Assembly (NCBI GenBank): GCA_038211765.1
Contig: JBBQVG010000022.1
Span: forward strand, 1 to 15,362
DNA from: Minisyncoccia bacterium
Lineage (GTDB): Bacteria; Patescibacteriota; Minisyncoccia; Phycocordibacterales; PALSA-1337
Length of the DNA: 15,362 nt
Reading direction: 5' to 3'
Shown: positions 1 through 15,095 of the stretch, piece by piece
Layout: every line of letters begins with the position of its first letter
Numbering within the stretch: position 1 is the stretch's first letter
Notes under the pieces: generated by a model
What the model was told of the DNA's origin: nothing
The model's database searches: none
The model's input: the letters and a program-made list of their open reading frames with translations, nothing else
Translations under genes and position numbers: made by a program

Positions 1-630
1 GGCACGGCTATTTTTACCAAAACCAAACCGATTTCGGTAGTAAACGGCCTTCCAGAGAAAATCTGCGAAAAATACGGTCTTGTTGCAGACTCATACGGCG
101 ATCCACGCACCGAAGGTAGGGTTATCGCTGCAGAATTCGAGAAATTCTATGTTGTTACGGTCTATACACCGAACGCAAAAGATGACCTCAGTCGCATTCC
201 CCTTCGGCACAAACAATGGGATCCGGCCTTTCTCGCCTATTGCAAAGAATTGGAAAACGGATCGACAGGCTCGTCGCAGGGAAAGCCAGTTATTTTTTGC
301 GGCGATCTTAACGTTGCTCATACTACCGACGACCTCGCTCGACCCAAAGAAAATGAGGGGATGAAAGGCTTTACTCTGGAAGAACGAGAAGGATTTCAAA
401 AGTTTATCGACTCCGGCTTTATTGACAGTTTCCGCATGTTTACCAAAGGTAACGGTCACTATAGCTGGTGGTCCAACTGGTCCAACGCGCGTGCACGTAA
501 CGTTGGTTGGAGGATTGATTATGTCCTACTCTCAGATATTTTGAAGAAAAAAGTGAAGTCAGCAAGTATTTTGCCCGAAGTGATGGGCTCAGATCACTGC
601 CCGGTAGAAGTTGAGGTGGATATCAAATAG
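1..630 (+). CDS. xth: Exodeoxyribonuclease III / AP endonuclease (EEP fold), 5' end cut by window edge
   Basis: Frame 1 is open from base 1 to TAG at 628-630. The translation contains GKPVIFCGDLNVAH, WWSNWSNARARNVGWRIDY and GSDHCPV, which are typical ExoIII catalytic motifs. Confidence 0.9.
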   Translation, partial: GTAIFTKTKPISVVNGLPEKICEKYGLVADSYGDPRTEGRVIAAEFEKFYVVTVYTPNAKDDLSRIPLRHKQWDPAFLAYCKELENGSTGSSQGKPVIFCGDLNVAHTTDDLARPKENEGMKGFTLEEREGFQKFIDSGFIDSFRMFTKGNGHYSWWSNWSNARARNVGWRIDYVLLSDILKKKVKSASILPEVMGSDHCPVEVEVDIK

Positions 631-1152
631 ATCACTTCGCATTTTTCATTGATCGTATACGAAAAAGCGCACAAGGAGCGAATCGAGAAATGATACGCGC
701 ATGTGCGCTTACGACATGAAGCCGTGCCTGAAGAACTGAAAGAACAATGGTTCCACAGAACCGGGGTTACAGATTCGAAAATGTCTCGAGTCTGTTTTTC
801 GTCAGGATGATTCCTAAGTTCGCGTTGCGCACTTTCCTATAGTAATGACTCTCCCGTTGGGAGGTCTAAGTGACAATGAGAAAGGATGTAACGGAGGGTC
901 TTAGCAACCAAGCGGCGAACTAACAAAAATTGTTCCTCAGAGATGACTTCAATAAAGTGAACGAGAAGCCTACCCTATGTGTGTGAAAGAACGAGTCTGT
1001 TTTTCTCACGACTACCCGTGAGTACCTCGGACAACAAACTGATCTGGAACAATTATAAATGTTCTAAAGGACAGTGTAAAGGACATAACTGTGGATAACT
1101 AGGTCTAATATGTGGATATAGGTCAGATGTTATAAAAGACACTCATAAAAAG

Positions 1153-2643
1153 CTAAGAAACGTGGTGCTTTGAGCGTATTTTCCCGATCTCTTCTTCCTG
1201 AGCCTCTTCTTTCCTCTTTCTACCCTCTTCTCCCAGTTGCGCCAATTCTTTCTCAGAGAGCTTTAACAGCTCCAATGTCTTGCTCTGTAGGTACTCTTCG
1301 GTATTAAGTTTGGGATCTTCCAGCACTTCTTCTAGTAGGGCATGCAAAATAGACCCGATCCTAGGACTTGGTCCTACCCCGCCAACCTCCATGATCTTCT
1401 GACCGTCGATTTTGAGCATCGCCACTGTGACAGGGTCCGCCATAGCCTCCTCTACCATAGATTTGTACTTTCTCAGTCTATAAGGGTTTTCCTTGGGCCT
1501 GCCGGTTCCTATACGGTCACAGATACGTACATTCATCAGATCCCAGATGTTTTCACGACCGACGTTTACGATCATACGGCGGACCGCAGAGAGTGAGATT
1601 TGTTCTGTATCACTAAAAAACATGTGCCAACGTACCAATTTGGCCACTTTTTCGATTGTTACACGTGAAAACTTCATTCTTTCGAGGATTTTACGTGTTT
1701 CACGTGAACCAACTACCTCGTGGCCATAAAAAGTGTAGGAATTTGCTTCACGTGAAAACTCTCTAGTCTTGGGCTTGGATATGTCATGAAATAGAGCCGC
1801 AAGTCTGATATCAAGAGGCCAATCCTTGTCTGCTGCACACTGAATGCTTCGAAGAAGGTGTTCCCAAACATCGTAAATGTGCACTCCCCTCTGTTCTATG
1901 CCAATTGCCGCTTCTAGTTCTGGTAAAAAGTGTTTCATGATCCCTGTTTGATGCAAAAGCTCCAAGCCTTTTTTGGGATTGCTCGAAAGAACAATCTTCA
2001 CGAACTCGTCACGGATACGTTCGATGGATATATCCTTAATAAAGCCAGAATGGCTCTGTATAGCCTCAAAAGTGTCCTTTTCGATAGTGAACTCTAGTTC
2101 GATGGCAAGACGGATGGCACGCATAATACGCAACGCATCCTCGCCGAAACGATCGCCGGGCTTCCCTACTGTCCTTATAACTTTGTCCTTTAGATCGGTG
2201 AAGCCACCGAAAAGGTCAACGATGTCTTTTATAGCGCCAGCAGACAGATTTACGGCTATAGCGTTGACCGTAAAGTCTCGACGCTGTAGATCGTCTTCCA
2301 GTTTATCGCTAAATTTGATGGTATCCGGGTGGCGGCGGTCTGAATATTCGGATTCTAGTCTATACGGGGTGACCTCAATGTTTCTCAAGCTCATCTCCTC
2401 AGTGCCTTCATTGATGACCGCAACAGTGCCATAAACATTCTCGTAGACTGTTTTTGGAAAGAGAGACTGGATCTTTTCTGGGTTAGCGTTTGTGGTGACG
2501 TCCCAGTCTTTGGGTCTACGACCGAGCAAGAGGTCTCGCACGCAACCGCCGACGAGATATGCCTCAAAACCGGCCTTTTCCAAGGTTTCGACAATATCTA
2601 CTACTTCCCTAGGAATAGGGCTGTTCTGGGCCATTTTCATCAT
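1153..2643 (-). CDS. cca: CCA-adding tRNA nucleotidyltransferase (PolyA-pol head domain plus C-terminal HD domain)
   Basis: 496-aa ORF. The N-terminus has GGCVRDLLLGRRPKDWDVTT and RRDFTVNA nucleotidyltransferase motifs. An HD motif (LFHDISKP) lies further downstream. Confidence 0.85.
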   Translation of the reverse strand: MMKMAQNSPIPREVVDIVETLEKAGFEAYLVGGCVRDLLLGRRPKDWDVTTNANPEKIQSLFPKTVYENVYGTVAVINEGTEEMSLRNIEVTPYRLESEYSDRRHPDTIKFSDKLEDDLQRRDFTVNAIAVNLSAGAIKDIVDLFGGFTDLKDKVIRTVGKPGDRFGEDALRIMRAIRLAIELEFTIEKDTFEAIQSHSGFIKDISIERIRDEFVKIVLSSNPKKGLELLHQTGIMKHFLPELEAAIGIEQRGVHIYDVWEHLLRSIQCAADKDWPLDIRLAALFHDISKPKTREFSREANSYTFYGHEVVGSRETRKILERMKFSRVTIEKVAKLVRWHMFFSDTEQISLSAVRRMIVNVGRENIWDLMNVRICDRIGTGRPKENPYRLRKYKSMVEEAMADPVTVAMLKIDGQKIMEVGGVGPSPRIGSILHALLEEVLEDPKLNTEEYLQSKTLELLKLSEKELAQLGEEGRKRKEEAQEEEIGKIRSKHHVS

Positions 2644-2660
2644 TGTAGTCTACAATAACT

Positions 2661-2688
2661 TTGGCTTTTTTCCTATGTGCGCTACTAT
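2661..2688 (+). promoter_or_regulatory. Candidate sigma70-type promoter for the tRNA-Arg/tRNA-Gly transcript
   Basis: TTGGCT (2661-2666), 16-nt spacer, TACTAT (2683-2688), about 30 nt upstream of tRNA-Arg and divergent from cca. Confidence 0.4.
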
Positions 2689-2717
2689 GATCGGACAGCT
2701 TCATGTTATTTTACATT

Positions 2718-2789
2718 GCGCCCGTGGTGAAATGGATATCACAACAGTCTTCGGAACTGTTGTTGCAGGTTCGAGTCCTGCCGGGCGCA
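2718..2789 (+). tRNA. tRNA-Arg (anticodon UCG)
   Basis: Hand-folded cloverleaf: acceptor GCGCCCG/CGGGCGC, D stem GTGA/TCAC, anticodon arm ACAGT-CTTCGGA-ACTGT, T arm GCAGG-TTCGAGT-CCTGC. Length 72 nt; no encoded CCA. Confidence 0.85.
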
Positions 2790-2853
2790 CAGAATTTTGA
2801 AATTGATGAGGTATAAGCTATACTTACCGAAATTGAAAATTTGAGATGACTCT

Positions 2854-2927
2854 GCGGGCATAGTTTAGTGGTAAAATGCGTCCTTGCCAAGGACGAGATG
2901 GGAGTTCGATTCTCCCTGCCCGCACCA
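2854..2927 (+). tRNA. tRNA-Gly (anticodon GCC), CCA encoded
   Basis: Acceptor GCGGGCA/TGCCCGC, anticodon arm CGTCC-TTGCCAA-GGACG, T arm GGGAG-TTCGATT-CTCCC, discriminator A followed by CCA (2925-2927). Confidence 0.9.
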
Positions 2928-2965
2928 ACATAGGGTTACCGATAGCAAAGCGAAGCTTTGCGTTT

Positions 2966-3078
2966 GAGAATCGAACGCCGGAGCGATGCTGAGTCAGCAG
3001 ACGAGGCCGCGAGGCGGTGGCTAGCCCGAGCCGAACTGGTGAGGTGAGAGGCGAAGCCGATTCTCCCTGCCCGCACCA
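2966..3078 (+). repeat. tRNA-tail element copy A: conserved 90-nt G-rich core (2971-3060) fused to a second copy of the tRNA-Gly(GCC) 3' end
   Basis: 2971-3060 aligns without gaps to 3855-3944 (79/90 identical by my count; perfect run 3009-3044 = 3893-3928). 3058-3078 (CGATTCTCCCTGCCCGCACCA) is an exact repeat of 2907-2927. 2966-2973 (GAGAATCG) is complementary to 3058-3065. Confidence 0.75.
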
Positions 3079-3272
3079 TAGGATAGTTGGGGATAACTCT
3101 GTGAATTGTGTTTATAAAAGACATGAATAAGGGCTAACAATCGTCATTTCTGTTGTCCGAGATGTCCTAAAGATATGTTTCACAAGAAACATTTCACGTG
3201 AAATAAGCCTGTTTTTCGATGTAAATTTGGCATATTATCTCTAATATTCGAGGTTTAACCTCGAAAATCAGT

Positions 3273-3647
3273 ATGCATAATAGACAAAAAGGTAATAATG
3301 GGGAAGATCTTGCATGTACTTTCTTGTCCAAGAAGGGCTTTATTGTTATAGATCGTAATTACTTGAAGAAGTGGGGTGAGCTCGACATCGTGGCCCAGAA
3401 AGACGGAAAGTTACACTTCTTTGAGGTAAAGAGTGTTATGTTTGGGGAAACTGCAGAGGGAAGTCATCGACCTGAGGACAACGTCCACGGATTGAAGGTA
3501 AGAAGTATCCGGAGAATGATCGAAACCTATATTGACGAGAAGAAGATCGCTCCAGAGACAGAATTTTATTTTCATGTACTATGTGTCTTTATGGACGAGC
3601 AAAGACGTAGTGCTCGAGTAAAGTGGATAGAAAACATCATTTTGTGA
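3273..3647 (+). CDS. yraN: YraN family (UPF0102) endonuclease-like protein
   Basis: 124-aa ORF with GEDLACTFLSKKGFIVIDRNY...GELDIVA...FFEVK, the characteristic YraN/PD-(D/E)xK-like pattern. Confidence 0.8.
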   Translation: MHNRQKGNNGEDLACTFLSKKGFIVIDRNYLKKWGELDIVAQKDGKLHFFEVKSVMFGETAEGSHRPEDNVHGLKVRSIRRMIETYIDEKKIAPETEFYFHVLCVFMDEQRRSARVKWIENIIL

Positions 3648-3654
3648 AACTTTG

Positions 3655-3663
3655 TGCTAATAT
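3655..3663 (+). promoter_or_regulatory. Candidate extended -10 element (TGCTAATAT) upstream of tRNA-Pro
   Basis: TGn-TAATAT lies 68 nt upstream of tRNA-Pro. Related TGCTAGTAT (4540-4548, before tRNA-Gly-UCC) and TGCTAGACT (7817-7825) occur in the window. No good -35 element. Confidence 0.35.
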
Positions 3664-3730
3664 GGCACGACACGCTGTCACCTTTGCGACCACGGGACTT
3701 GCCGTAGTGAGTCGCCTAGGAGACCAAAGA

Positions 3731-3803
3731 CGGGGCGTGGTGTAACGGCTAACATGCCTCTTTTGGGAAGAGGTGACTCCGGGTTCGAATCCCGGCGCCC
3801 CGA
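3731..3803 (+). tRNA. tRNA-Pro (anticodon UGG)
   Basis: Acceptor CGGGGCG/CGCCCCG, anticodon arm CCTCT-TTTGGGA-AGAGG, T arm CCGGG-TTCGAAT-CCCGG. Length 73 nt; no encoded CCA. Confidence 0.9.
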
Positions 3804-3848
3804 CAGACATTAGGTAAGCAATAGCAGGTGCCTTGAGGCACGTGCGTC

Positions 3849-4004
3849 CTGGATTCGAACGCCGGAGCCGTATCGAGCCAGCAGGCGAGATGGCGAGGCG
3901 GTGGCTAGCCCGAGCCGAACTGGTGAGGCGAGAGGCGAAGCCGAATCCCGGCGCCCCGACAAATTTTAGATAAGCAATAGCAGGTGCCTTGAGGCACGTG
4001 CGTC
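3849..4004 (+). repeat. tRNA-tail element copy B: conserved core (3855-3944) followed by a second copy of the tRNA-Pro 3' end plus its downstream hairpin
   Basis: 3942-4004 repeats 3786-3848 (63 nt with a few mismatches clustered at 3806-3815), giving a 156-bp period. 3851-3857 (GGATTCG) is complementary to 3942-3948 (CGAATCC). The core is homologous to copy A. Confidence 0.75.
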
Positions 4005-4054
4005 ATGGCAAAGCGATAGAGGCCGAATCATCGGCTGTGTGTTAAAATATTGAG

Positions 4055-4519
4055 ATGAAACAAGTTCTTCATTTTTTCGACAAATTGGAAGACAAGATCA
4101 GGGTGAGTCTCAGTCACCACCCTATCGTCTATACATTTATCGGCGGCATCTCTATTGTGCTGTTCTGGCGCGGTGTATGGCATACGGCGGATATCCTTGC
4201 GGCTCAGGGAGGTTGGCTCGGTTTTTTGTTCTATGAGCCAGTCAATCTCATCATTGTGGTTGTGATACTGCTTGCAACCGGGTTGTTTGTTTCGTACTTT
4301 GTGGGGGATACCATCCTTATAACTGGCCTACGTGGTCAGAAAAAGATAACGGAAAGGACAGAAAAAGAAATAGAGGATGAGGAAAAAGAGTTAGTGTCCA
4401 TTCGGTCGACTATCAAAGACATCAAACACGAAGTTGACGAGATCAGGGATGCAGTAACTCATAGGCAATCAACATCTCATTCAAGCGAGGGGGGACACAC
4501 CAGTAAGGTATCAGGTTAA
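4055..4519 (+). CDS. Hypothetical membrane protein with charged coiled-coil-like C-terminus
   Basis: 154-aa ORF. It has two hydrophobic segments (IVYTFIGGISIVLFW; LIIVVVILLATGLFVSYFVG) followed by a KE-rich tail. No family recognised. Confidence 0.6.
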   Translation: MKQVLHFFDKLEDKIRVSLSHHPIVYTFIGGISIVLFWRGVWHTADILAAQGGWLGFLFYEPVNLIIVVVILLATGLFVSYFVGDTILITGLRGQKKITERTEKEIEDEEKELVSIRSTIKDIKHEVDEIRDAVTHRQSTSHSSEGGHTSKVSG

Positions 4520-4583
4520 TTTTCAAACAGGGGAGTATCTGCTAGTATGGAGCGCACGGCCCAGTGGGGCTATGAATGAGAAG

Positions 4584-4654
4584 GCGGGATTAGTTAAATG
4601 GTATAATAACAGTTTTCCAAACTGTGGTCGGGAGTTCGATTCTCCCATCCCGCA
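4584..4654 (+). tRNA. tRNA-Gly (anticodon UCC)
   Basis: Acceptor GCGGGAT/ATCCCGC, anticodon arm ACAGT-TTTCCAA-ACTGT, T arm GGGAG-TTCGATT-CTCCC. Length 71 nt. Confidence 0.9.
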
Positions 4655-4672
4655 CCGAAACACATTAATTAT

Positions 4673-5224
4673 ATGAAAAGACTTTTTGTAATACATGGGT
4701 GGGGTGGAAGCCCGAACGAACCAATGATCCATTGGTTGGGTGAAAAAGGGCGAGAGTTGGGTTATGAAGTGGCAGTACTAGAGATGCCCAACAGTGCTGT
4801 CCCTACTATAGGTGCGTGGACTGCTCACCTAGATGAGCACGTTATGTATGTTGACGAGAATACAGACTTTATCGGTCACAGCATCGGCTGTCAGGCCATC
4901 CTTCGCTATCTTGCAACTCAAAAAGGATCGAAGGTGGGCAAAGTTGTACTCATCGCTCCATGGATTGAGATTGCAGCACAGGAGACAGCAGAGGAAGAAG
5001 ACATCGCTCGTCCTTGGAAAGAAAACCCTATCGATTTCGTCTCTATTAGGGGTATGGGAAAGGATTTTACTGCGATTTTTTCAGACAATGACGCGGATGT
5101 ACCATTGGAAGCAAACAAAGCTTGGATTGAGAAAAATCTGAATGCCAATATTATTGTTGAGACAGGGAAGGGGCATTTTACCGAAGAGGACGGTGTAGTG
5201 GATTTACCATCGGTGTTTGTGTGA
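4673..5224 (+). CDS. Alpha/beta-fold serine hydrolase (YdeN/RBBP9-like)
   Basis: 183-aa ORF with an N-terminal VIHGWGGSP strand-loop and a GHSIGC nucleophile elbow (GxSxG). Confidence 0.75.
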   Translation: MKRLFVIHGWGGSPNEPMIHWLGEKGRELGYEVAVLEMPNSAVPTIGAWTAHLDEHVMYVDENTDFIGHSIGCQAILRYLATQKGSKVGKVVLIAPWIEIAAQETAEEEDIARPWKENPIDFVSIRGMGKDFTAIFSDNDADVPLEANKAWIEKNLNANIIVETGKGHFTEEDGVVDLPSVFV

Positions 5225-5243
5225 AGACTTGGCTAGCATAAAC

Positions 5244-5295
5244 AAAAAACCGCCAAGTAAGTGATTTTGCTAAATCACACCACGGCGGTCTTTTG
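5244..5295. terminator. Bidirectional intrinsic terminator between the hydrolase gene and hup
   Basis: A-run, then ACCGCC (5249-5254) pairing with GGCGGT (5284-5289). An inner stem GTGATTT/AAATCAC is enclosed, and a T-run follows. Confidence 0.6.
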
Positions 5296-5358
5296 ATTGA
5301 GATACAACGCGTTAGTTGCAGAGAAGTGGTCGATAGGGCACTTCTGTGCAGTAAAACG

Positions 5359-5631
5359 TTATTTTACGGCGTCCTTGAGGGCCTTTGCGGCGCGGAACTT
5401 CGGAACCTTCATGGCAGGGACCTTGATGGCCTCACCTGTACGAGGGTTGCGAGCTTCACGGGCTGCACGCTGTTTTACTGAGAAGATACCGAGACCTGCG
5501 ATAGAAACCTCATCACCCTTCTTCAAGGAGTCGATGATGCTGTTAATCATAGTCTCGACCGCCTGCTCAGCCTGAACTTTCGTTCCGCCGAGAACTCCAT
5601 GAACTGCGTCAACAATACTTGCTTTGTTCAT
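5359..5631 (-). CDS. hup: HU family DNA-binding protein
   Basis: 90-aa ORF with MNKASIVDAV...GDEVSIAGLGIFSVKQRAAREARNPRTGEAIKVPA, the canonical HU/IHF arm sequence. Confidence 0.95.
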   Translation of the reverse strand: MNKASIVDAVHGVLGGTKVQAEQAVETMINSIIDSLKKGDEVSIAGLGIFSVKQRAAREARNPRTGEAIKVPAMKVPKFRAAKALKDAVK

Positions 5632-5839
5632 TTGTGTGTAATTAGTACTAATAATCTAGGCTCTAATACTGGTCTCGGTCCCTCAACCTCGATTCCGAGG
5701 TCTCGGGATCAAGTTGCGAACCATGAGGATAATTATATAGTAAGCCATTTTAAGCACAATAGGGCTGTAAAGATTGACAACATTTCTTTTTTCATGGTAT
5801 CTTTAGGCCATTCTATTAATTAATACAATTTTACGACCT

Positions 5840-6097
5840 ATGGCAAAAGAAAATTCTGCGTTTATGAAACCTATGACTATAAGTTCGGATCTGGCCGCAG
5901 TTGTCGGCGCAGGCCCTATGCCTCGATCTGAGGTGGTCAAGGCTCTCTGGGTATATATCAAGAAGCACAATCTCCAGGATCCCAAGAACAAGCGCAATAT
6001 CAACGCCGATGAAAATCTCAAGAAGGTTTTTGATGGCAAGGCAGTGGTCAATATGTTCGAAATGACCAAGCTGGTGTCAAAGCATCTGACGAATTAA
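5840..6097 (+). CDS. SWIB/MDM2 domain protein
   Basis: 85-aa ORF. PMPRSEVVKALWVYIKKHNLQDPKNKRNINADENLKKVF matches the SWIB domain pattern. Confidence 0.85.
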   Translation: MAKENSAFMKPMTISSDLAAVVGAGPMPRSEVVKALWVYIKKHNLQDPKNKRNINADENLKKVFDGKAVVNMFEMTKLVSKHLTN

Positions 6098-6118
6098 GAA
6101 AGATTTAGTTCGCTTACA

Positions 6119-6148
6119 AAAATACCGAAGGAATTCGGTATTTTTTGT
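6119..6148 (+). terminator. Intrinsic terminator after the SWIB gene
   Basis: ATACCGAA (6122-6129), GGAA loop, TTCGGTAT (6134-6141), then a T-run. Confidence 0.75.
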
Positions 6149-6283
6149 TGGGGCTCTATTTCCTTGTAAGTCTTGGTACCTTCAAGATCATTTCACCGAT
6201 TGCGTCACGGTAATATTGACTGTAGCTACAGAGACACGGATAGTCCATTCCATACCATTATTCTTCCGATGATTGAGGATTTT

Positions 6284-6313
6284 AAGCCGCCTTTTGGCTT
6301 GGGCGGTTTTTTG
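6284..6313 (+). terminator. Second terminator-like hairpin plus T-run upstream of the TrmB-family gene
   Basis: AAGCCGCC...GGCGG stem followed by TTTTTTGTTTT. It sits 135 nt after the previous terminator with no ORF in between. Confidence 0.5.
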
Positions 6314-6342
6314 TTTTCGCCTCTTTGTGATAATCTGTACTC

Positions 6343-7101
6343 ATGTTAGAAAAATATCTCCAAGACATCGGCCTGAGTGAAAAAGAATCCGTCATCTACA
6401 TTTCCCTCCTGGCCGTAGACAATAGTTCTGTACTCGATCTGTCCAAGAAAACCAAGCTCAATCGTTCTACCACCTACGTTATTCTCGAATCTCTGGCTAA
6501 AAAAGGCTTGGTGACAGAGACGACGGTTGGTAAAAAGACTCATTACCAAGCAGAACCCCCAGAAAGACTCGAGACTTATGTTGAACAACGCAAAATCTTG
6601 CTTGAGGAACAATCAAAAAAACTCAAAGACATTATCCCTCAGATAAAAAGTGTACAGAGGGAGGGTGGTGAGAAGCCGATTGTGAAGTATTTTGAGGGAA
6701 AAGATGGTTTGATAAGCCTACATGAAGAATTTTTTCTTGGTCAAAATGAAGATGCGATAAGCTATCTAATATATTCAAAGGATTTAGTTGATGAAATATT
6801 TTCTGCGACTGAAAGGGAGAAATACAGAAACATGCGATTGGGTAAAAATATTAAGTCAAAAGTTCTTTACACCTACCTAAATGGAACAATTCCTACAAGT
6901 ATTGACGGAGAGAGAGTAAAAATTGATGGTACCAAATATCCTATACTTTGTGATATCTCAGTCTGTGAGGATAGAGTCAAAATTGCAATTCTAGGTAAAA
7001 AGCTTTCGGGTATTTTCATTAAAAGTAAAGAATTTGCTGAAACATTCAGGAGTATCTTTAATATTGGGTTTGACCAAATGCAGAAGGGGGCCCAGTCGTA
7101 A
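6343..7101 (+). CDS. TrmB family (winged-helix) transcriptional regulator
   Basis: 252-aa ORF. The N-terminal LQDIGLSEKESVIYISLL...LSKKTKLNRSTTYVILESLAKKGLV is the TrmB HTH signature. TGTGATAAT (extended -10) lies 9 nt before the ATG, suggesting a near-leaderless mRNA. Confidence 0.8.
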   Translation: MLEKYLQDIGLSEKESVIYISLLAVDNSSVLDLSKKTKLNRSTTYVILESLAKKGLVTETTVGKKTHYQAEPPERLETYVEQRKILLEEQSKKLKDIIPQIKSVQREGGEKPIVKYFEGKDGLISLHEEFFLGQNEDAISYLIYSKDLVDEIFSATEREKYRNMRLGKNIKSKVLYTYLNGTIPTSIDGERVKIDGTKYPILCDISVCEDRVKIAILGKKLSGIFIKSKEFAETFRSIFNIGFDQMQKGAQS

Positions 7102-7797
7102 TACGACCAGGCCCCGAACTAACCGAATCGGAACTTCAGATCGTTGTAGCCTCTTGGCTTTTTTTGCTTATCAACAATGAATGAACTTTGATCTAGACGA
7201 TCTCCGAAGTCCGACGTGCATCGCATTTGCGACCCGTACGATCCAAGCAATTAGGATCGATTATTTGCTTGATAGAGACCCATATCCTGAGTCAACATCT
7301 TAGCTTTCTTTTGACTTAATCACACATACTAGCTTTCCTTTCCTTACTTCTCCCAACTTTGAAGGGCACAACCGAATGGTTTCAATACCGTCTTCTAGTG
7401 CCTTATGAGGTCCACCAGAAGACGGTACTTACTTGCATCTAGTCGCTCATAAGTCCCTCCTTATTTCTGGTTGAGAGCCATGAATGGCACATTTTAAGGC
7501 CAATATCTGCCACCACCCACTTCTGAAACAAGTTTAGCAGACCAAAATCAAAATGTCAAGTTTTTATACCATTTTAGGCAAATAAGTAAGGTTTCAGGCC
7601 ATAAAACCATGAATATAGGCATATTTAGTTATTTTATCTGTTTTTTATTGTTTACAGAAAATTTTAATTAGAAATTATATATTTATATTGTCATAATATT
7701 TTATTAAATGTTATTATTTAATACCTTATTTATGATGAGAATAACCATATTTATAGGCATTATTTTGATACTAAAGGTTATATAATGTTATTTATAC

Positions 7798-7825
7798 TTG
7801 ACAGATTTATGGAATGTGCTAGACT
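7798..7825 (+). promoter_or_regulatory. Strong sigma70-type promoter with extended -10
   Basis: Perfect TTGACA (7798-7803), 16-nt spacer, TGc-TAGACT (7817-7825). A ~240-bp very AT-rich tract (UP-like) lies immediately upstream. Confidence 0.6.
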
Positions 7826-7831
7826 CTGCAA

Positions 7832-8697
7832 CAGAACAAAAGATGTGTCCAGGGAAGGCACTGCTATCCCGCTTCGATCGGAGCGCCATGTCTCAATAAA
7901 AATGACGGGCGCTCGGAAAGGAGCGGGATGAGGAACCTTAAAAATGCACATCATGAGTGATGGCACGACCATGACCCACGCCGAGTGGCTGGCATGGTTG
8001 CGCGGGGAGTAGTAGTACTCCCTATGCTGTGACTGCAGTAATGTAGCGCACGGAGTATGGGTATCAGCTTGGCAAAAGAAATGATACAGCAGACCCACTG
8101 CGACAAGGGAAAGGTATCCATACCTACACAAATGGAGATGCACGCAGAGTTAACAACGCAAATAATTCTGCGTGCATATAGGGGGGAACTCATGTTCCCC
8201 ACTTTATCAGGTTCGTTTTGGAAATGAGCCTGCAAAGTGTCCGTCAGTTAGAAAAAGTAGTTCTTTACAATAGTGTCTGCACTATCTTGCATCTAAAGTG
8301 ATGCGTAGATGCGAGATAGTGCAGATACTTCGCAGGTATCCGAGCACGCTGTGTGACCCGGTACAACCCGGCGTATAGTAACCTCTTTTTCACATGGATG
8401 AGAGGTAAGGGCGCACGGAGTTCCCGTGACCACCCGAAAAGTAGTGAGTGCGAATGAAAGCTTCAGCTTTCATTGGCCCGGAAAGCTCAGCATTGGTGCT
8501 GAGTAACCGTTTGTTTCGCCACATCGCGCTTCTACCAGGAAGCGGAGGTTGTGGGAAACATCTCATTGCATGGGTGCTGTGTACACCCGAGACATGCTGG
8601 AGCATGTTCTCACTGCGAGTTTTTCGGTTCGCTCATTCAACCCAAATGAGCATCTTATTGAATCAATGACATGAAGTCGTTGATTCAAAGGAATTTG
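7832..8697 (+). ncRNA. Candidate large structured non-coding RNA / highly structured leader (family not recognised)
   Basis: No credible ORF. There is a dense series of perfect local helices. Examples: 7866-7873/7922-7929 enclosing 7881-7887/7908-7914; 7968-7973/7993-7998; 8005-8011/8016-8022; 8138-8148/8167-8177; 8183-8189/8194-8200; 8273-8295/8306-8328; 8381-8386/8401-8406; 8454-8461/8466-8473; 8486-8492/8497-8503; 8527-8532/8539-8544; 8592-8597/8602-8607; 8658-8670/8676-8688. Boundaries are approximate. Confidence 0.5.
8273..8328 (+). other. 23-bp hairpin immediately after the first GTTCTTTACA box (8260-8269)
   Basis: 8273-8295 pairs with 8306-8328 (21 Watson-Crick plus 2 G-U pairs) around a 10-nt loop. 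Confidence 0.7.
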
Positions 8698-8708
8698 GTT
8701 CTTTACAT

Positions 8709-9014
8709 ATGAAAACTTTACTATTGTTCGTCTTCGCGGCATTTGTGCTCGTCGGATGTGTTCCGGAGCAAAGCGCACCCCGATCGCTTACCTATTTTCC
8801 AACTAATAATTGGCAGGTAGTGAGTGTGACGGAAGGTGAGGTGGTGGTCGAAACAAAATCGACCAACTTGCCCCTGCGATACAGGGTAGTCCGAGCTACT
8901 CCTGTTACGCCACTGACCAACGGTCAGTTTGCGAGGGTTGAGCTCACTTTGAAACGCCATCTGTACAACCCTGACGAGGTTGCCACAGCTCGAGCGTTTC
9001 CGGCGGACCACTGA
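8709..9014 (+). CDS. Small putative lipoprotein
   Basis: 101-aa ORF. MKTLLLFVFAAFVLVGC is a signal peptide with an L-V-G-C lipobox. The ATG is directly preceded by a GTTCTTTACA box (8698-8707). Confidence 0.6.
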   Translation: MKTLLLFVFAAFVLVGCVPEQSAPRSLTYFPTNNWQVVSVTEGEVVVETKSTNLPLRYRVVRATPVTPLTNGQFARVELTLKRHLYNPDEVATARAFPADH

Positions 9015-9110
9015 GGCGAGACCATGGATGTCTATAAACTCCCGTAATACTCTGGGGAAGCTCCAGGGCGCCTAACAAGCGGAAACTGTTGGGATGATGC
9101 AAATCGTCTC

Positions 9111-9163
9111 TCTGTTCTCGAGATGAGTATCTCGACTGACGAGTCTGAAAAGACGAAAACAGA
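9111..9163 (+). ncRNA. Hammerhead ribozyme, type III (HHR-1), predicted cleavage after C9117
   Basis: Stem III TCTGTT (9111-9116)/AACAGA (9158-9163), then C17. Stem I TCGAGA-TGAGTA-TCTCGA (9118-9135). Core CUGACGA (9136-9142). Stem II GTCT-GAAA-AGAC (9143-9154). Core GAAA (9155-9158). Confidence 0.85.
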
Positions 9164-9190
9164 AACGTTCTTTGAGTTAATAAAGCATTT

Positions 9191-9241
9191 CACCTCCGCT
9201 TTTTCTATTTCATTATTTTTGGAATAAAGAAAGCGGAGGTG
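9191..9241 (+). promoter_or_regulatory. Hairpin sequestering the Shine-Dalgarno sequence of the 9247 ORF
   Basis: CACCTCCGCTTT (9191-9202) pairs with AAAGCGGAGGTG (9230-9241). GGAGG (9235-9239) lies in the 3' arm, 7 nt before the ATG at 9247. Confidence 0.6.
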
Positions 9242-9246
9242 TAAAA

Positions 9247-9429
9247 ATGCCATTCTGCCGTCCCAAAGGGTCGGAGCTGGTTGCGATCATTGGTCGTAGC
9301 CTTCTCAGTAGTTGGGTGCACTCAAGCGTTGGCAGGCTGAAATCTGTCTTGGTAACCCCAGTAAAGAAGAAATTCTTTACACTTGAGAGTCGCAACTGCA
9401 AGCCGTATGAAGAGTACCTCTTCATTTGA
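9247..9429 (+). CDS. Hypothetical small protein (60 aa)
   Basis: The ORF is preceded by a strong GGAGGTG SD at optimal spacing. No family recognised, and an internal hairpin is present, so coding status is uncertain. Confidence 0.4.
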   Translation: MPFCRPKGSELVAIIGRSLLSSWVHSSVGRLKSVLVTPVKKKFFTLESRNCKPYEEYLFI

Positions 9430-9537
9430 ATCATTAGCAAATATCGATGGTAGTCCATCGGAGATGATTCACGGAAGGGAGGTGTTGGGGTAATTCAAAA
9501 CCCTGACACCTCCTATCATCCTTATTTAGGAAAATTT

Positions 9538-9696
9538 ATGGGGATGGGAGCAAAGTCTTTCAAAACCACTGGAGGGTCAGGGGGCAAGAAAGGTCACTCC
9601 AACATGGTTCATTGGACGTTCACTGAGGAAATCAAAGTGATCGCCAAGAAGGCACGCAGGATGGCCGATCGAGCTCTCTCCCGTCCGCGGGAGTAG
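9538..9696 (+). CDS. Hypothetical small basic protein (52 aa, below the ORF-track cutoff)
   Basis: My translation: MGMGAKSFKTTGGSGGKKGHSNMVHWTFTEEIKVIAKKARRMADRALSRPRE, ending at TAG. AGGA lies 6 nt upstream of the ATG. Confidence 0.3.
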   Translation: MGMGAKSFKTTGGSGGKKGHSNMVHWTFTEEIKVIAKKARRMADRALSRPRE

Positions 9697-9972
9697 GAAG
9701 CAATAACACCTGTAAAATGGTTGCCACAAAATCCGGTGGTGTAAATCAAGGTAAAAAGTTTTGTCCCCATTTCGTAAAATGGAGAGCCTAGAGGAAGCAG
9801 AGCCTCACGCAGTCGGAGCCGTATGGCTAGTATAGAGGTAACAGAGATCGACACTCTATTGCGTCCGAAGACTTGGTTGGCTAGTCTCCAACCCTAAGAT
9901 CGAGCACGGCCCAGTCGTGGGATACTCTAGTGGAAGTAACTAAAATCCACTCTTGATGACATTGTCATCAAG

Positions 9973-10024
9973 TTCTGTCTCAGAATGTAATTCTGACTGA
10001 TGAGCTCAAAAGAGCGAAACAGAA
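9973..10024 (+). ncRNA. Hammerhead ribozyme, type III (HHR-3 by order of discovery, second in position), predicted cleavage after C9979
   Basis: Stem III TTCTGT (9973-9978)/ACAGAA (10019-10024), then C17. Stem I TCAGAA(T)-GTA-(A)TTCTGA (9980-9996). Core CUGAUGA (9997-10003). Stem II GCTC-AAAA-GAGC (10004-10015). Core GAAA (10016-10019). Confidence 0.85.
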
Positions 10025-10035
10025 GTTCTTTACAA

Positions 10036-10091
10036 TCATGTTCATAGTATTCTGAATATTTATATAGGTACTTAGAATACTATGAATATGA
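10036..10091 (+). promoter_or_regulatory. ~20-bp hairpin burying the first two in-frame ATGs of the 10082 ORF
   Basis: 10036-10055 pairs with 10072-10091, with a 13-bp perfect core TTCATAGTATTCT/AGAATACTATGAA. The ATGs at 10082 and 10088 lie in the 3' arm. Confidence 0.6.
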
Positions 10092-10258
10092 AAATGAAAG
10101 TACTGTTTATCAGTATCGCCGGGCTCTGGGCAGTTGCTGCTTGGGCGAGTTACGAGCCCCACGTTCTTTTGATGAACGTGGCGAGTGTGTTGGGATTGCA
10201 GCTAGGTATCATTTATTTGGTACTTGAGCGGCGGCACACGAGGCGCGTGACCAAGTGA
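10082..10258 (+). CDS. Small hydrophobic protein, two predicted transmembrane helices (58 aa, below the ORF-track cutoff)
   Basis: My translation: MNMKMKVLFISIAGLWAVAAWASYEPHVLLMNVASVLGLQLGIIYLVLERRHTRRVTK, ending at TGA. It has two ~19-aa hydrophobic stretches and a basic tail. Confidence 0.45.
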   Translation: MNMKMKVLFISIAGLWAVAAWASYEPHVLLMNVASVLGLQLGIIYLVLERRHTRRVTK

Positions 10259-10298
10259 GGGACTTGAATACCCCTTCTCCATCCAGTGAGAAACTGGA

Positions 10299-10349
10299 TT
10301 GCTCTCGAGATGTGTGTCTCGACTGATGAGTCCGAAAGGACGAAAGCAG
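10299..10349 (+). ncRNA. Hammerhead ribozyme, type III (HHR-2), predicted cleavage after C10304
   Basis: Stem III TTGCT (10299-10303)/AGCAG (10345-10349), then C17. Stem I TCGAGA-TGTGTG-TCTCGA (10305-10322). Core CUGAUGA (10323-10329). Stem II GTCC-GAAA-GGAC (10330-10341). Core GAAA (10342-10345). Confidence 0.85.
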
Positions 10350-10364
10350 AGTGTTCTTCGTAAA

Positions 10365-10426
10365 TTGATGTTCATAATAATCTTATTTTTGAATATCATC
10401 AGAAATTAGATTATTATGAACATCAA
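10365..10426 (+). promoter_or_regulatory. 19-bp perfect hairpin burying the start codon of the GNAT gene
   Basis: TTGATGTTCATAATAATCT (10365-10383) pairs with AGATTATTATGAACATCAA (10408-10426) around a 24-nt loop. The ATG at 10416 is inside the 3' arm. Confidence 0.65.
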
Positions 10427-10844
10427 AATCATCTCTGCATCTGTAGCTACTCACCAGCTATTCAGTCAACACGCATACATCAAAGCTGATCTCTGGTTCC
10501 CAACTCTGTTTGGAGGGGATCGTATCTCATGTTGTGATGAGGCTGTGGTCGTTGAAGTCAGTGGTACAATCGTCGCTTTGGCGACTATCGCTCCAGAAGG
10601 AGAAATGACCTCAGGTGTTCCCACTATTGTTGGTCTATATACAGTACGTGGTCACCGGAAGTCCGGATACGCACGCCTGGCTTTCGAAGCGGCGGTTAAG
10701 AGGGGAATCGAACGTGGGTTTACCAAGATCCGCGTTGACACGCTCTCTAAGGGAGCTTTGAGAATCACGAAAACGATGCCAATGGAACTGTCACAAGTTC
10801 TAGAGGTTGGCCTCCAGATCCTTCTTTGTGGATTCCTGGAATAA
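10416..10844 (+). CDS. GNAT family N-acetyltransferase
   Basis: 142-aa ORF. VRGHRKSGYARLAFEAAVKRGIERG fits the GNAT motif A (R/Q-x-x-G-x-G/A) acetyl-CoA binding segment. Confidence 0.7.
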   Translation: MNIKIISASVATHQLFSQHAYIKADLWFPTLFGGDRISCCDEAVVVEVSGTIVALATIAPEGEMTSGVPTIVGLYTVRGHRKSGYARLAFEAAVKRGIERGFTKIRVDTLSKGALRITKTMPMELSQVLEVGLQILLCGFLE

Positions 10845-10955
10845 TTTTGCGAAAGCAAGAGGTGCTCACTACCTATAACAAAGTGTGAGCTGTTCGGCGA
10901 AACTGGTTGGTCACCAGTGTGCCGCTTCAGTGAAAAAAGCGGGAGGAGGATGTGC

Positions 10956-11147
10956 ATGAAAAAGCACTCTACTTCTCGGAAGAATGTTGAGCCCGTTACC
11001 GACGCCATCGTGGATAAGGGAATGAAGCTTCTCAAAAATCCGAGAGTGCCTAAAAAGATCAAGCGGCAATTGGTTGAAGCTGCATTTCACGGAGTTCAAA
11101 CCGGTGAAGTCAGTTTCTCCCAGCTCTGCAAGATCTCGAGGGCATGA
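10956..11147 (+). CDS. Hypothetical small protein (63 aa from the ATG at 10956), possibly a truncated HTH protein
   Basis: GGGAGGAGG SD (10941-10949) lies 6 nt before the ATG. Sequence: MKKHSTSRKNVEPVTDAIVDKGMKLLKNPRVPKKIKRQLVEAAFHGVQTGEVSFSQLCKISRA. It ends where a helix-turn-helix would normally continue. Confidence 0.4.
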   Translation: MKKHSTSRKNVEPVTDAIVDKGMKLLKNPRVPKKIKRQLVEAAFHGVQTGEVSFSQLCKISRA

Positions 11148-11297
11148 CTGATGGACAGACATCCGAAGGATGCGCAGGGCTCGGCAGATAAGAGTCCTAA
11201 CCTTCGATTCAGAAGCGCAATTGTTGTCACCTTTGTAAAGCGTGAGCCTCGTATGCAGTACGTTGGGAAGAGTGACTTCCTGAGAACAAATAGTCAC

Positions 11298-11340
11298 GAA
11301 AAAACCGCACTCCATTATTGACGTGCGGTTTCATCATTTT
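11298..11340. terminator. Bidirectional intrinsic terminator (end of the + strand block and of rny)
   Basis: A-run, AAACCGCAC (11302-11310) pairing with GTGCGGTTT (11323-11331), followed by T-rich sequence. Confidence 0.7.
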
Positions 11341-11351
11341 TATACTTATGT

Positions 11352-12884: not shown

Positions 12885-13111
12885 ATGCGGAATGATCCGC
12901 CTCTAGGGACTAGGGTGATAGTAACGTATGAGATGTTGCGAGCTTCAGAGTCGAGAAATCGGAGAAAACAGCCAAGGATGGTAGGGTAAATCGGAAGTGC
13001 TGAAGAAGTAAGGTAATCATAAGTTGGTGTCACGCAGGTCTGCAAGGCGAAATCAATAATTTAAATTTGGTAACACTTGTAATATACAATAAATGAGGGT
13101 TATTTGTCTAC

Positions 13112-13309
13112 TTACCAAATAATTGATGATGAGTGCCGACGCGGTGTAACAAGAAATCCTTCGTATTCATGTTTGAGCTTATGGTTGTTGAGAAGTGGAT
13201 CAAATTCATTAAGTGTAAAAATCCTTATACGTTCATTAACTTTTTCACAGATCTCCTTTTGGAGCCTCTTCCAATCTTTTGTGAATAGTGATGACCAATG
13301 AATTATCAT
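13112..13309 (-). CDS. RelE/ParE-superfamily type II toxin (short, atypical C-terminus)
   Basis: 65-aa ORF. FTKDWKRLQKE...RIRIF..NEFDPLLNNHKLKHEYEGF resembles RelE/YafQ-like toxins. It lies 17 nt downstream of an antitoxin-like gene. Confidence 0.5.
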   Translation of the reverse strand: MIIHWSSLFTKDWKRLQKEICEKVNERIRIFTLNEFDPLLNNHKLKHEYEGFLVTPRRHSSSIIW

Positions 13310-13326
13310 AAAGTAGGTAGGACATA

Positions 13327-13611
13327 TTAAGAGTTTAGGGCAGCAATAAGTTCGTCCACCGAATGAGCCACTGGTAATTTTCCCTCCCTGTATTCTTTTT
13401 CTCCTTTTAATAAGGACGCAATTGTTTTCTTGTTTAGTACGTATTCTTCTTCTGTAGTCAGGCTCACCCCTTTATTACGCACAAACTGGCGAAGAAGGGC
13501 ATTGACGAGCGTGCCGAGAGGCAACCCGATCTGTTCGGCGGTTTTCTGGGCGGCCTGCTTGAGATTCTTGTCGATTTTGACTGTGAGTAAGGTTTTAGTA
13601 TTTGTAGTCAT
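13327..13611 (-). CDS. RelB/DinJ-like (ribbon-helix-helix) antitoxin
   Basis: TKTLLTVKIDKNLKQAAQKTAEQIGLPLGTLVNALLRQFV is an RHH/DinJ pattern. I prefer the ATG at 13611 (MTTNTK...) over the ORF-track start at 13659. Confidence 0.6.
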   Translation of the reverse strand: MTTNTKTLLTVKIDKNLKQAAQKTAEQIGLPLGTLVNALLRQFVRNKGVSLTTEEEYVLNKKTIASLLKGEKEYREGKLPVAHSVDELIAALNS

Positions 13612-13671
13612 ATACCCAAGTATATACTTCGGTATGATGGTGTCAATAAAAATCAACATACGTCAGGATCA

Positions 13672-14700: not shown

Positions 14701-14759
14701 CTAGTAATCGGGCAAATAAAAAAGGCAACCGTTGGATGTGGTCACCATTTAATTGCGAA

Positions 14760-15080
14760 CTAGAACTTTCTTCTGACGAGACAAAGAAGGGCTTCTTCTT
14801 GAGGGGGAATATCATCGGCCCTTCCTTTGGGATGAGTCCAGTAGTGCCCTGGTGTGAAATTTAGTGACCCTTCCCCGACTATCTGCTCGAGCTCCGTGAA
14901 TGTTGGAAGCCGTCCTCCGTCATGGTTTAAAACAACCTCAAACAAGTGTTCACTTTTGACGACTCCCATGTGAAATGTTTCCAATGGCAATGGTCCAATT
15001 TTATTCATACTGTTCCTTTCTACATCAACAAGGGTTCCTTTCGTTTGCCAAAAATTACCATTTAGGGTAGATTGTGTCAA
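14760..15080 (-). CDS. Hypothetical protein; weak resemblance to the DUF1566-type RLPT..EL motif
   Basis: 106-aa ORF. An alternative start at 15008 is preceded by [18 protein letters not shown] is only a weak family hint. Confidence 0.4.
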
Positions 15081-15095
15081 TCAAACCAAACCACC

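Follow-up and report, generated by a model that had tools for sequence, protein, structure and literature searches.

XerCD uses the attP(+) hairpin of the phage CTXphi, and IntI uses a folded attC site. In CTXphi, two inverted dif-like sites 90 bp apart pair in the single strand, creating a functional attachment site; host recombinases integrate the phage, and tandem arrays regenerate its circle (PMC4246890). Here, we analyze a 15,362-nt stretch of DNA, referred to as the window, from a Minisyncoccia bacterium (GCA_038211765.1, contig JBBQVG010000022.1, positions 1-15,362, forward strand), in which two similar repeats follow tRNA genes. Judged from sequence comparison, the two repeats are copies of an element of ~150 to 170 nt that has no open reading frame (ORF) and lies at the 3′ ends of tRNA and transfer-messenger RNA (tmRNA) genes in Patescibacteria. 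These bacteria, the candidate phyla radiation (CPR), make up a very large and poorly understood part of bacterial diversity and have tiny genomes. The element family appears to be undescribed so far, from Rfam 15 and a literature search, and would represent either a minimal mobile element of a new type or a tRNA-linked RNA of a new class. Our preferred reading, at a probability of about 0.45, is that it is a non-autonomous integrative element that would target the T-loop-to-3′-end segment of tRNA and tmRNA genes by means of a trans-acting activity. The closest kind among those we compared would be the integrase-less integrative elements with folded attachment sites, from which it differs in target, size, and structured core.

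Like CTXphi, the element carries two inverted target-like copies on one strand, ~90 to 95 nt apart, that can pair with each other (PMC4246890). Its order of target, short cargo, inverted copy, ~95-nt spacer, direct copy, and native flank also resembles that of integrated CTXphi, the latter order being a reconstruction; neither has an integrase of its own, and both form tandem arrays. The two differ in that CTXphi targets dif and the element the part of tRNA and tmRNA genes between T-loop and 3′ end, and in that the element is ~150 nt long and gene-less, whereas CTXphi is ~7 kb. Moreover, the spacer of the element is a covarying two-hairpin junction with blocks common to all sampled copies, and its stem reproduces only half of a recombinase-type site, with no known single-stranded stage or enzyme. 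A second likeness is to the islands and prophages of tyrosine integrases, which also have tRNA and tmRNA genes as targets, leave the tRNA intact, carry a repeat from the T-loop to the 3′ end, and form arrays at the tRNA. The mark of such tRNA islands, a direct repeat of the 3′ part of a tRNA gene that itself stays intact, is found at both window loci (2907-2927 equals 3058-3078, and 3786-3852 resembles 3942-4008). Unlike these islands, the element has neither integrase nor cargo (no ORF), is one to two orders of magnitude smaller, and holds an inverted copy of its target together with a conserved structured core.

Two copies in the window and their family

ARAGORN and Rfam place four tRNA genes on the plus strand of the window, Arg-TCG (2718-2790), Gly-GCC (2854-2927; Rfam tRNA, 72.1 bits), Pro-TGG (3731-3804; 62.9 bits), and Gly-TCC (4584-4656). 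The second and third of these are hosts to the element, which follows each on the same strand at a distance of 40 to 50 nt. The original prediction, made from this stretch alone, held that the two repeats are gapless cores with 79/90 identical positions and perfect runs, each closed by a helix complementary to the local tRNA-derived tail. Realignment bears this out: the cores (2971-3060 and 3855-3944) align without gaps at 79/90 identity, with mismatch-free stretches at 3009-3044 (36 nt) and 3046-3060 (15 nt), and the ends pair in sequence as GAGAATCG (2966-2973) with CGATTCTC (3058-3065) in the Gly copy and as GGATTCG (3851-3857) with CGAATCC (3942-3948) in the Pro copy. A core 23-mer has 2 matches in the window versus 0.00 expected, and under a covariance model of the family the two copies reach 100.3 and 99.1 bits and the next best match 11.3 bits. 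All 11 differences between the two cores are compatible with the structure described below. Hairpin P2 has four double compensatory changes (2985/3008, 2988/3007, 2989/3006, and 2994/3001), and the remaining changes include two from wobble to Watson-Crick pairs and one in a bulge. The core has 68% G+C, compared with 45% for the window. Two parts of the unit were absent from the prediction, namely a 9-bp hairpin before the 5′ segment and the identity of the 3′ tail, which duplicates the end of the tRNA in the way that integration does.

In the Gly copy, all on the plus strand, the last 20 to 21 nt of the tRNA (2907/2908-2927) form the first copy of the direct repeat (DR). A linker, or trailer (2928-2944), comes next and is homologous in pairwise alignments to the linkers of the Pro copy and of a copy behind tRNA-Leu at locus L001 (loci outside the window are numbered in this way). 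It leads to hairpin P0 (2945-2961; GCAAAGC-GAA-GCTTTGC, then GTTT) and to the anti-T-arm segment, an inverted repeat (IR; GAGAATCGAAC, 2966-2976) that is the reverse complement of tRNA-Gly positions 53-63. The 5′ strand of the closing helix P1 lies within it (2966-2973), with GAA as the junction after P1. RNAalifold and pair counts define P2 (2976-3016), which has an invariant base of CGCC/GGCG plus GGAGC/GCGAGG and a variable distal hairpin with tandem G·A, and P3 (3020-3057; GCTAGCC...GGCGAAGC), a long irregular hairpin. The unit ends in the second copy of tRNA-Gly positions 56-76 (3058-3078), identical to the first, in which 3058-3065 is the 3′ strand of P1.

The Pro copy, also on the plus strand, has the same parts and a 67-nt direct repeat. 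The first repeat copy (3786-3852) holds tRNA-Pro from position 56, the linker, P0 (3824-3845), and the first nucleotides of the IR, and is 93% identical to the second (3942-4008), which holds tRNA-Pro positions 56-74 (3942-3961) and then a second linker and P0. In both window copies, then, the unit closes with a second tRNA piece running from T-loop position 56/57 to the 3′ end. The Pro copy further comprises the anti-T-arm segment (GGATTCGAAC, 3851-3860), the reverse complement of tRNA-Pro positions 53-62, and P2 (3860-3900) and P3 (3904-3941), covered by the covariance model match at 3847-3951 (99.1 bits). Segment 3942-4008 is best read as the start of an older tandem unit whose core has since been lost; a possible but weak remnant of the older core-to-repeat junction lies at 4019-4029 (plus strand; GAGGCCGAATC versus GAAGCCGAATC; local alignment score 17, with 24/1000 shuffles as high).

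Relatives were sought by exact 21-mer and 32-mer searches and then by a gapped pattern (AACGCCGGAGC, a 15- to 40-nt gap, and GCGAGGCGGTG) drawn from two invariant blocks of five aligned copies. The exact words had no match in species-representative genomes or viral contigs. The 21-mer found three further copies on two contigs of one metagenome, after tRNA-Leu-GAG, tRNA-Arg-CCG, and tRNA-Arg-CCT, each with the reverse complement of its own T-loop just 5′ of the core; a rare TTCAATT loop gives GGAATTGAAC. The gapped pattern gave at least 119 matches in species-representative genomes, among them three chance matches (L026, L035, and L044), and the family counts are lower bounds. Nearly all of the matches listed are labeled Patescibacteria, including Saccharibacteria and Paceibacterota; further labels among them are Uhr-, Magasanik-, Kaiser-, Yanofsky-, Woese-, Komeili-, Kuenen-, Kerfeld-, Morani-, Jorgensen-, Portnoy-, Taylor-, and Nomurabacteria. 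Typical copies also occur in seven metagenome-assembled genomes (L004, L008, L024, L045/L102, L068, L088, and L093) that were deposited as "uncultured Gammaproteobacteria" (third-party annotation), a label that may be wrong given the element and its gene context; otherwise, the family reaches beyond Patescibacteria. A viral contig collection yielded 14 chance pattern matches and no true member: the match from the first gapped scan (L003) is visibly different in sequence and has no tRNA, and 13 chance matches of a relaxed pattern have no tRNA and reach at best 19.8 bits (covariance model and ARAGORN). With Rfam 15, only tRNAs pass threshold in the window, nothing credible lies over the cores at E up to 10 on 2700-4100 (best, sR53 at 12.4 bits and mir-375 at 15.4 bits), and 18 other loci gave only tRNA, tmRNA, rRNA, and one group I intron, none of them on the element. 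A literature search on CPR RNAs and tRNA-linked elements yielded no relevant description.

Family-wide, a unit runs 5′ to 3′ as tRNA, trailer, P0, IR, GAA junction, P2, P3, one nucleotide (C or A), and the second tRNA copy from position 57, around a conserved core of two hairpins and ~95 nt. P0 typically has 9 bp and a 4-nt loop and ends 3 to 4 nt before the IR; its stems differ freely in sequence among copies with the pairing kept (median -14.2 kcal/mol; z < -2 in 76/117). P2 combines its invariant base with a variable tip that has tandem G·A, P3 has two tandem G·A motifs and, in one subfamily, a GGAA loop, and Saccharibacteria-type copies have an additional hairpin, P4, within the 3′ strand of the closing helix. 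The trailer bears an intrinsic-terminator-like hairpin and a T-run in 22/82 tRNA-adjacent copies. At eight loci with different tRNAs (L067, L059, L066, L002, L025, L038, L040, and L094), a purine-rich motif, (C)GAAC(G/A)AAGTGA(G/A), directly follows the tRNA 3′ end and is sometimes repeated after the downstream repeat. Inserts of 13 to 25 nt that form hairpins split the downstream tRNA fragment between T-loop- and T-stem-derived nucleotides, as in L018, L007, L084, L040, L048, and L077 and also in L001 (~848-871), L032, and L038; GAAA[AGCGTACTCGCG]GTCC in Saccharibacteria-type copies is an example, and the tail beyond such inserts still equals the tRNA 3′ end.

The association with tRNA genes holds across the family. 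A same-strand tRNA lies at most 200 nt upstream of 88/122 family copies, and most of the remaining copies are at a contig edge or have a tRNA 212 to 293 nt upstream with another unit between. The element is always on the tRNA strand, 30 to 100 nt downstream, and in one case (L120) directly behind a tmRNA. At least 16 amino-acid identities are occupied, and 93/212 tRNA genes carry a copy in the sampled loci, which were chosen because they hold the element; no Cys, Met, or Phe tRNA has one in these loci.

The second element of the original prediction, a scaffold joined to a tRNA-specific module, fits most of the 86 tRNA-adjacent copies tested: their 5′ segment reverse-complements the T-loop and T-stem of the neighboring tRNA (positions 53-65). 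Its outer five nucleotides match the reverse complement of tRNA 61-65 at 4 to 5 of 5 positions in 66/86 copies, and its inner four fully match the complement of 57-60 in 59/86. Other copies thus carry tRNA-matched ends as the prediction supposed, including those behind tRNAs with rare T-loop variants. At non-Watson-Crick sites of the T-stem, 13 cases have an IR that agrees with the reverse complement of the 3′ strand, 2 have one that agrees with the 5′ strand itself (49-53), and 13 agree with neither. We considered that the IR might be the T-stem 5′ strand of a duplicated tRNA and rejected this, as 13 versus 2 favors the reverse complement of 61-65. About one-quarter of copies have GA for UC opposite G57-A58 (...GAGAAC rather than ...TCGAAC), so that a tandem G·A replaces two Watson-Crick pairs, a variant that we read as a structural alternative and not as a tRNA copy.

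Identity between tRNA and DR usually spans positions 57-74 and stops abruptly at the tRNA end (mode, 18 to 21 nt), and at some loci it extends over trailer, terminator, and P0 (67 to 132 nt). In 58 tRNA/repeat pairs, most of these CPR tRNA genes lack an encoded CCA and nearly all have C at 74, right after which the identity most often stops. Non-templated CCA shows no excess in the downstream tRNA fragment (4 versus 3 cases), and an origin of this fragment as a retro-copy was rejected because that signature is missing. Where tRNA and downstream fragment differ, raw counts place the IR nearer to the tRNA, a comparison confounded by truncations, P4 insertions, and similar mutation counts on both sides.

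The complementarity can extend further. Nucleotides directly 5′ of P0 complement the acceptor-strand part of the DR in at least 12/89 copies, compared with 2/529 controls, and so the closing stem can reach 20 bp or more with P0 interrupting it; in the window copies it has only 8 bp. At the four informative loci (L096, L008, L085, and L056), this 5′ complement follows the native flank after the DR and not the flank after the tRNA. At L100, L014, and L033, the acceptor 3′ strand and trailer form near-perfect long palindromes with the sequence 5′ of P0 (CCCGCTCAAAAATCAAAAAATTTTTTGATTTTTGAGCGGG at L100; those of L014 and L033 enclose the terminator hairpin), so that one inverted segment has two possible pairing partners, the tRNA end and the downstream repeat.

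The folding strand and its chemical nature

We aligned 91 copies (alignment A3) and evaluated them with RNAalifold, pair counts, and two controls, partners slid by 1 to 3 columns and 500 shuffles. The consensus is a three-way junction with compensatory changes in 19/27 pairs. Standard pairs fill 92.5% of pair cells, compared with 35 to 44% for slid partners and a mean of 74.1% for the shuffles, and the covariation score is 0.496, compared with 0.06 to 0.13 for slid partners, with 0/500 shuffles as high. In the closing helix, 86% of cells are paired. Both-sided changes occur in 15/18 pairs of the variable internal helices (6/8 in distal P2 and 9/10 in P3); the four pairs of the P2 base are uninformative on covariation because they never vary. 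The covariation in the internal helices establishes the structure without relying on the tRNA-derived helix, and the earlier idea of a structured RNA therefore stands in the form of a structured single strand. That prediction had also cautioned that the match to the tRNA might arise from copying of the local tRNA instead of selection on structure. Copying may still explain the match; the structure is shown by the internal helices regardless. One specific pairing that it proposed, 2994-2997 with 3037-3040, falls outside the consensus, in which 2988-2995 pairs with 3000-3007 in P2.

Non-canonical pairs identify the strand that folds. Within the internal helices, G·U cells outnumber A·C cells (26 versus 11), and G·A/A·G cells outnumber C·T/T·C cells (62 versus 8), an excess showing that it is the tRNA-sense (plus) strand. 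Single-sequence folds of the minus strand have positive z and are no better than shuffles. Together, these results speak against the alternative, minus-strand reading of the original prediction, an antisense primer-binding site fused to a C-rich scaffold. G·T and G·A are among the most stable mismatches in DNA hairpins too, and the strand asymmetry for this reason leaves RNA and single-stranded DNA (ssDNA) undivided. Most likely, the folded active strand is an RNA read through from the tRNA. We lean toward RNA because of the G·A-rich multi-helix junction with shared blocks (in copies selected by pattern), the 68% G+C of the core, the constant orientation relative to the tRNA, and the 60/82 copies without a terminator-like hairpin. 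We keep ssDNA alive because about one-quarter of copies bear a terminator and because the CTXphi and attC precedents act as DNA.

Taken to its limit, the RNA form suggests that the three-way junction is itself the active RNA, as a small ribozyme or ribonucleoprotein (RNP), of a self-guided mobile element, whose anti-T-arm segment, as an internal guide, would attack or exchange strands at the T-loop of the cognate tRNA or tRNA gene between positions 56 and 57, capture the tRNA 3′ end, and be rewritten for each tRNA. We regard this as unlikely; if true, CPR bacteria would harbor a hitherto unknown class of mobile element that is RNA-guided, targets tRNAs, and has no protein gene.

The converse proposal, in which RNA is irrelevant, is that the sense strand folds as ssDNA, that the inverted and direct arms together form a duplex copy of the target, and that a host or helper recombinase integrates it, with P0 as a possible nick or origin hairpin. 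Such a process would account for two inverted target-like sites ~95 nt apart beside a rebuilt target (compare PMC4246890) and for the tandem arrays, which CTXphi needs to regenerate its circle (PMC4246890). It also sits well with the terminator that the element itself supplies in 22/82 copies and with the extension of the stem along the native flank beyond the tRNA end at the four loci named above, and the stability of G·T and G·A in DNA hairpins makes it compatible with the strand asymmetry. However, known folded attachment sites are simple hairpins with poorly conserved spacers, in contrast to the two-hairpin junction with shared blocks seen here (again in pattern-selected copies), and the stem spans only the right half of a T-arm site. 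Nor did the neighborhoods offer a suitable enzyme: all-against-all clustering of ORFs within ~4 kb of 118 loci, with the ten largest clusters inspected, revealed no recombinase or Rep gene that recurs. With no known source of single-stranded copies and no copy on viral contigs, we judge a purely DNA-based mechanism quite improbable.

Mobility versus residence

Several observations point to turnover of the element. Tandem units occur at L031, L045, and L063, and the window Pro locus has a second trailer and P0 after its DR. The tRNA-identical tail is decayed or truncated in many copies in which the core is intact. Occupancy is patchy within a conserved cluster of a CCA-adding-type nucleotidyltransferase gene, tRNA-Arg-TCG, tRNA-Gly-GCC, and yraN, where the element follows the Gly gene in the window, L056, and L087 and the Arg gene in L015 and L047. 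In 10/25 cases, the nearest neighbor of a copy in the internal core is a copy behind another tRNA of the same genome; with genome labels shuffled, the mean is 0.38 and the highest count 4. The window Gly core is 95% identical to the L001 copy behind tRNA-Leu, and homology also covers trailer and P0 in L020/L105, in L075/L106, in L009/L037, and among the window Gly, window Pro, and L001 copies. Our preference for a non-autonomous integrative element rests on these tandem arrays, decayed copies, patchy occupancy, and within-genome similarity.

How such an element might move can be outlined. It would enter by strand exchange inside the T-loop-to-3′-end segment of a tRNA gene, from a source that, by reconstruction, would be a small circular or single-stranded molecule with a tRNA 3′ segment. 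Exchange inside that segment would rebuild the tRNA and push its old 3′ end downstream, where it would form the direct repeat. The anti-T-arm guide of the tRNA-sense strand would pair with the extra tRNA copy and close the three-way junction, so that the folded strand displays a stem copying its own target, and the invariant core would be recognized by an enzyme in trans or be itself catalytic. At a new tRNA, the guide might be re-matched by a template switch that "perfects" the quasi-palindrome with the neighboring repeat, or by selection for the closing stem; template-switch events at quasi-palindromes are known from mutagenesis. We infer the mobility itself, the role of the guide, the point of exchange, the choice between RNA and ssDNA as the active form, and the enzyme. 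If the element is mobile, ~150 nt can target essential genes harmlessly by rebuilding the tRNA end, with a terminator-like hairpin supplied in about one-quarter of copies, and a new target specificity can be acquired by an element that encodes no protein, which bears on RNA-guided or structure-guided integration tools.

A number of points weigh against integration as the explanation. No excised form, within-species empty-site polymorphism, or transcript has been seen to date; no reverse transcriptase (RT), integrase, recombinase, HUH, or nuclease gene recurs in the ten largest clusters from the 118 neighborhoods; and no family member is on viral contigs. The re-matching of the guide to a new tRNA is unexplained by the data, template-switch correction being only a suggestion. 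The single-sequence folding energies of the plus strand are unremarkable (z = -1.2 and -1.0), and the 25 invariant positions come from an alignment chosen by a pattern that fixes 22 of them and are for that reason not independent evidence; real conservation over deep lineages could equally reflect a host function. Likeness between L094 and L114 is limited to the core and could represent gene conversion between old copies in place of new insertion. The terminator-like hairpin before 22/82 copies argues against strong co-transcription. Finally, orthologous copies are kept at the same tRNA across species (L033, L052, and L053), indicating that many copies are old and stable.

The last of these points leads to the main rival, a host function, which phylum-wide conservation and long persistence at some loci bring forward. 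In this alternative, the element is a resident, host-useful noncoding RNA that is co-transcribed from the tRNA trailer, its anti-T-arm would pair with the T-arm or 3′ strand of the tRNA or with the decoy copy, and its role would be that of a regulator, chaperone, processing signal, or decoy specific to the tRNA. Local duplication would have produced the tRNA fragment and arrays as by-products. The constant placement on the tRNA strand, 30 to 100 nt downstream, is what a trailer RNA would show, and in 60/82 copies no terminator-like hairpin separates the tRNA from the element. In the window, a promoter-like site (2797-2824, plus strand; TTGAAA-16 nt-TATACT), of a kind no more numerous in a consensus scan than in shuffles, precedes tRNA-Gly and could drive joint transcription of tRNA-Gly and the element, and no terminator-like site was found in 2600-4200, including between tRNA and element. 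The very strong purifying selection that acts on the structure throughout the phylum, the retention of orthologous copies across species (L033/L052/L053), a G+C content of the core far above that of the window, as expected of structural RNAs in AT-rich genomes, and the attenuator-like logic of three segments (tRNA strand, complement, and second copy) are all in keeping with such a role. Against this stand the uneven distribution, with only 93/212 tRNAs in the sampled loci occupied, none of them Cys, Met, or Phe, and occupancy that varies between orthologous clusters, and the resemblance of the arrays, internally deleted units, and decayed downstream fragments to element turnover. The decay of the tRNA-identical tail in many copies with an intact core, and the insulation of about one-quarter of copies from their tRNA by a terminator-like hairpin, also fit poorly. 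Weighing both sides, we consider a resident RNA somewhat unlikely; were it correct, it would reveal an unknown layer of tRNA biology in organisms with a minimal translation machinery.

The direct repeat also raises the possibility that the copies are scars of larger, integrase-driven islands or prophages in tRNA genes that were later deleted, leaving attL, attR, and a conserved arm, like cis-mobilizable elements. A repeat from the T-loop to the 3′ end is present, and it is the classic signature of T-loop-class integration. Deletion would have had to leave the same boundaries and the same 150-nt content at more than 100 independent loci, and RNA-type covariation is seen in every helix. In addition, the 3′ end of the core is unlike the T-stem 5′ strand needed for an attP core site, no integrase gene recurs near the 118 loci, and the viral contigs hold no family member. 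We consider scars of this sort very improbable. Whether integrative, as we prefer, or resident, the family merits an entry in an RNA family database and affects the annotation of tRNA genes and integration sites in CPR genomes.

Other systems and neighboring genes

Several further systems share single features with the element. Like the internal guide sequence of group I introns and the exon-binding site of group II introns, an internal segment complements the target over the insertion point (tRNA 53-65 around 56|57) and varies with the target; unlike these introns, the element has a ~95-nt core, an upstream tRNA that is complete and needs no splicing, and no RT or maturase gene. An intron identity was rejected, there being no Rfam intron match on the element (E up to 10 on window 2700-4100). 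At locus L010, a group I intron (6811-7102, minus strand; 51 bits, gathering score 50) lies ~150 nt upstream of an element copy (6552-6664), and the RNA directly upstream ends in a T-arm and an acceptor-like 3′ end that ARAGORN did not call; this is probably an intron-containing tRNA gene that also bears the element. A retron msr-msd resembles the element in its end-closing helix, G-containing junction, two hairpin domains, and length of ~100 to 150 nt, and differs in that the element is multi-copy with tRNA-specific ends and has no Rfam retron-type match; the retron was dismissed for want of a recurrent RT-like cluster among the ten largest ORF clusters beside the copies. A guide RNA of a CRISPR, OMEGA, or bridge RNA effector was likewise set aside, as no recurrent effector is adjacent and the largest cluster comprises 11/118 loci.

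attC sites and IS200/IS605 elements (PATE-like) have in common with the element a folded strand that is recognized and an outer stem whose structure is conserved above its sequence. The anti-T-loop end, ...TCGAAC, approaches the attC consensus RYYYAAC, and the T-loop, GTTCGAT, approaches GTTRRRY, with one mismatch each. The element differs from both in its three-way junction core with shared blocks and in the lack of a TnpA context, and an integron attC was rejected because the right junction (...GCC|GATT) lacks the GTT of an R′ box and there is no intI or cassette array. Among the remaining candidates, a long terminal repeat primer-binding site is contradicted by a window complement that spans only 53-63, a minus strand that does not fold, no retroelement genes, and no CCA excess. 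A tRNA or tRNA-like gene is not called by ARAGORN or Rfam, which find the upstream tRNAs only, and the acceptor-pairing 5′ segment also covers the discriminator and flank. IS91, with its GTTC target, was dropped as its junction sequences and gene context do not fit. In a miniature inverted-repeat transposable element, finally, the inverted arms would not change with each tRNA as they do here, where the duplication is at least 18 nt and bounded by tRNA landmarks.

The genes around the copies are those of an ordinary chromosome. In the window, they include a CCA-adding/poly(A)-polymerase-type enzyme (1153-2643, minus strand), a serine hydrolase, a TrmB-like regulator, RNase Y, RhuM, and, between the two element copies, a UPF0102/YraN protein (3273-3647, plus strand; Pfam E = 2e-15), presumably with an endonuclease fold. 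YraN was rejected as a partner because five other genomes have it beside the tRNA-Arg-TCG/tRNA-Gly-GCC cluster regardless of which tRNA bears the element, and the CCA-adding-type enzyme because of its synteny with the same two tRNA genes. The earlier statement that no RT or recombinase accompanies the copies extends to all 118 loci, at which no RT, recombinase, or guide-RNA effector recurs among the ten largest ORF clusters; the recurrent protein partner for which it had hoped did not emerge from the ORF clustering, the 11-locus cluster being a small membrane protein by eye. Proteins of ~80 to 90 amino acids with a GIY-YIG motif, again by eye, occur at 8/118 loci (L027, L033, L059, L073 with two copies, L094, L112, L038, and L050), a few hundred to a few thousand nucleotides from element copies at different tRNAs. 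They were not retained as a partner, 8/118 being about background by a rough estimate.

Elsewhere in the window, ~4 kb (about 7100-11300) contain short ORFs only and long perfect hairpins, for example at 10365-10426 and 8272-8329. Three motifs resembling type III hammerheads (CUGAUGAG...CGAAA) lie here on the plus strand, at 9972-10025 (44.5 bits against a gathering score of 48.5; E = 1.2e-7), 10303-10345 (31.3 bits), and 9116-9158 (29.1 bits), and the region may be another small-RNA or mobile region.

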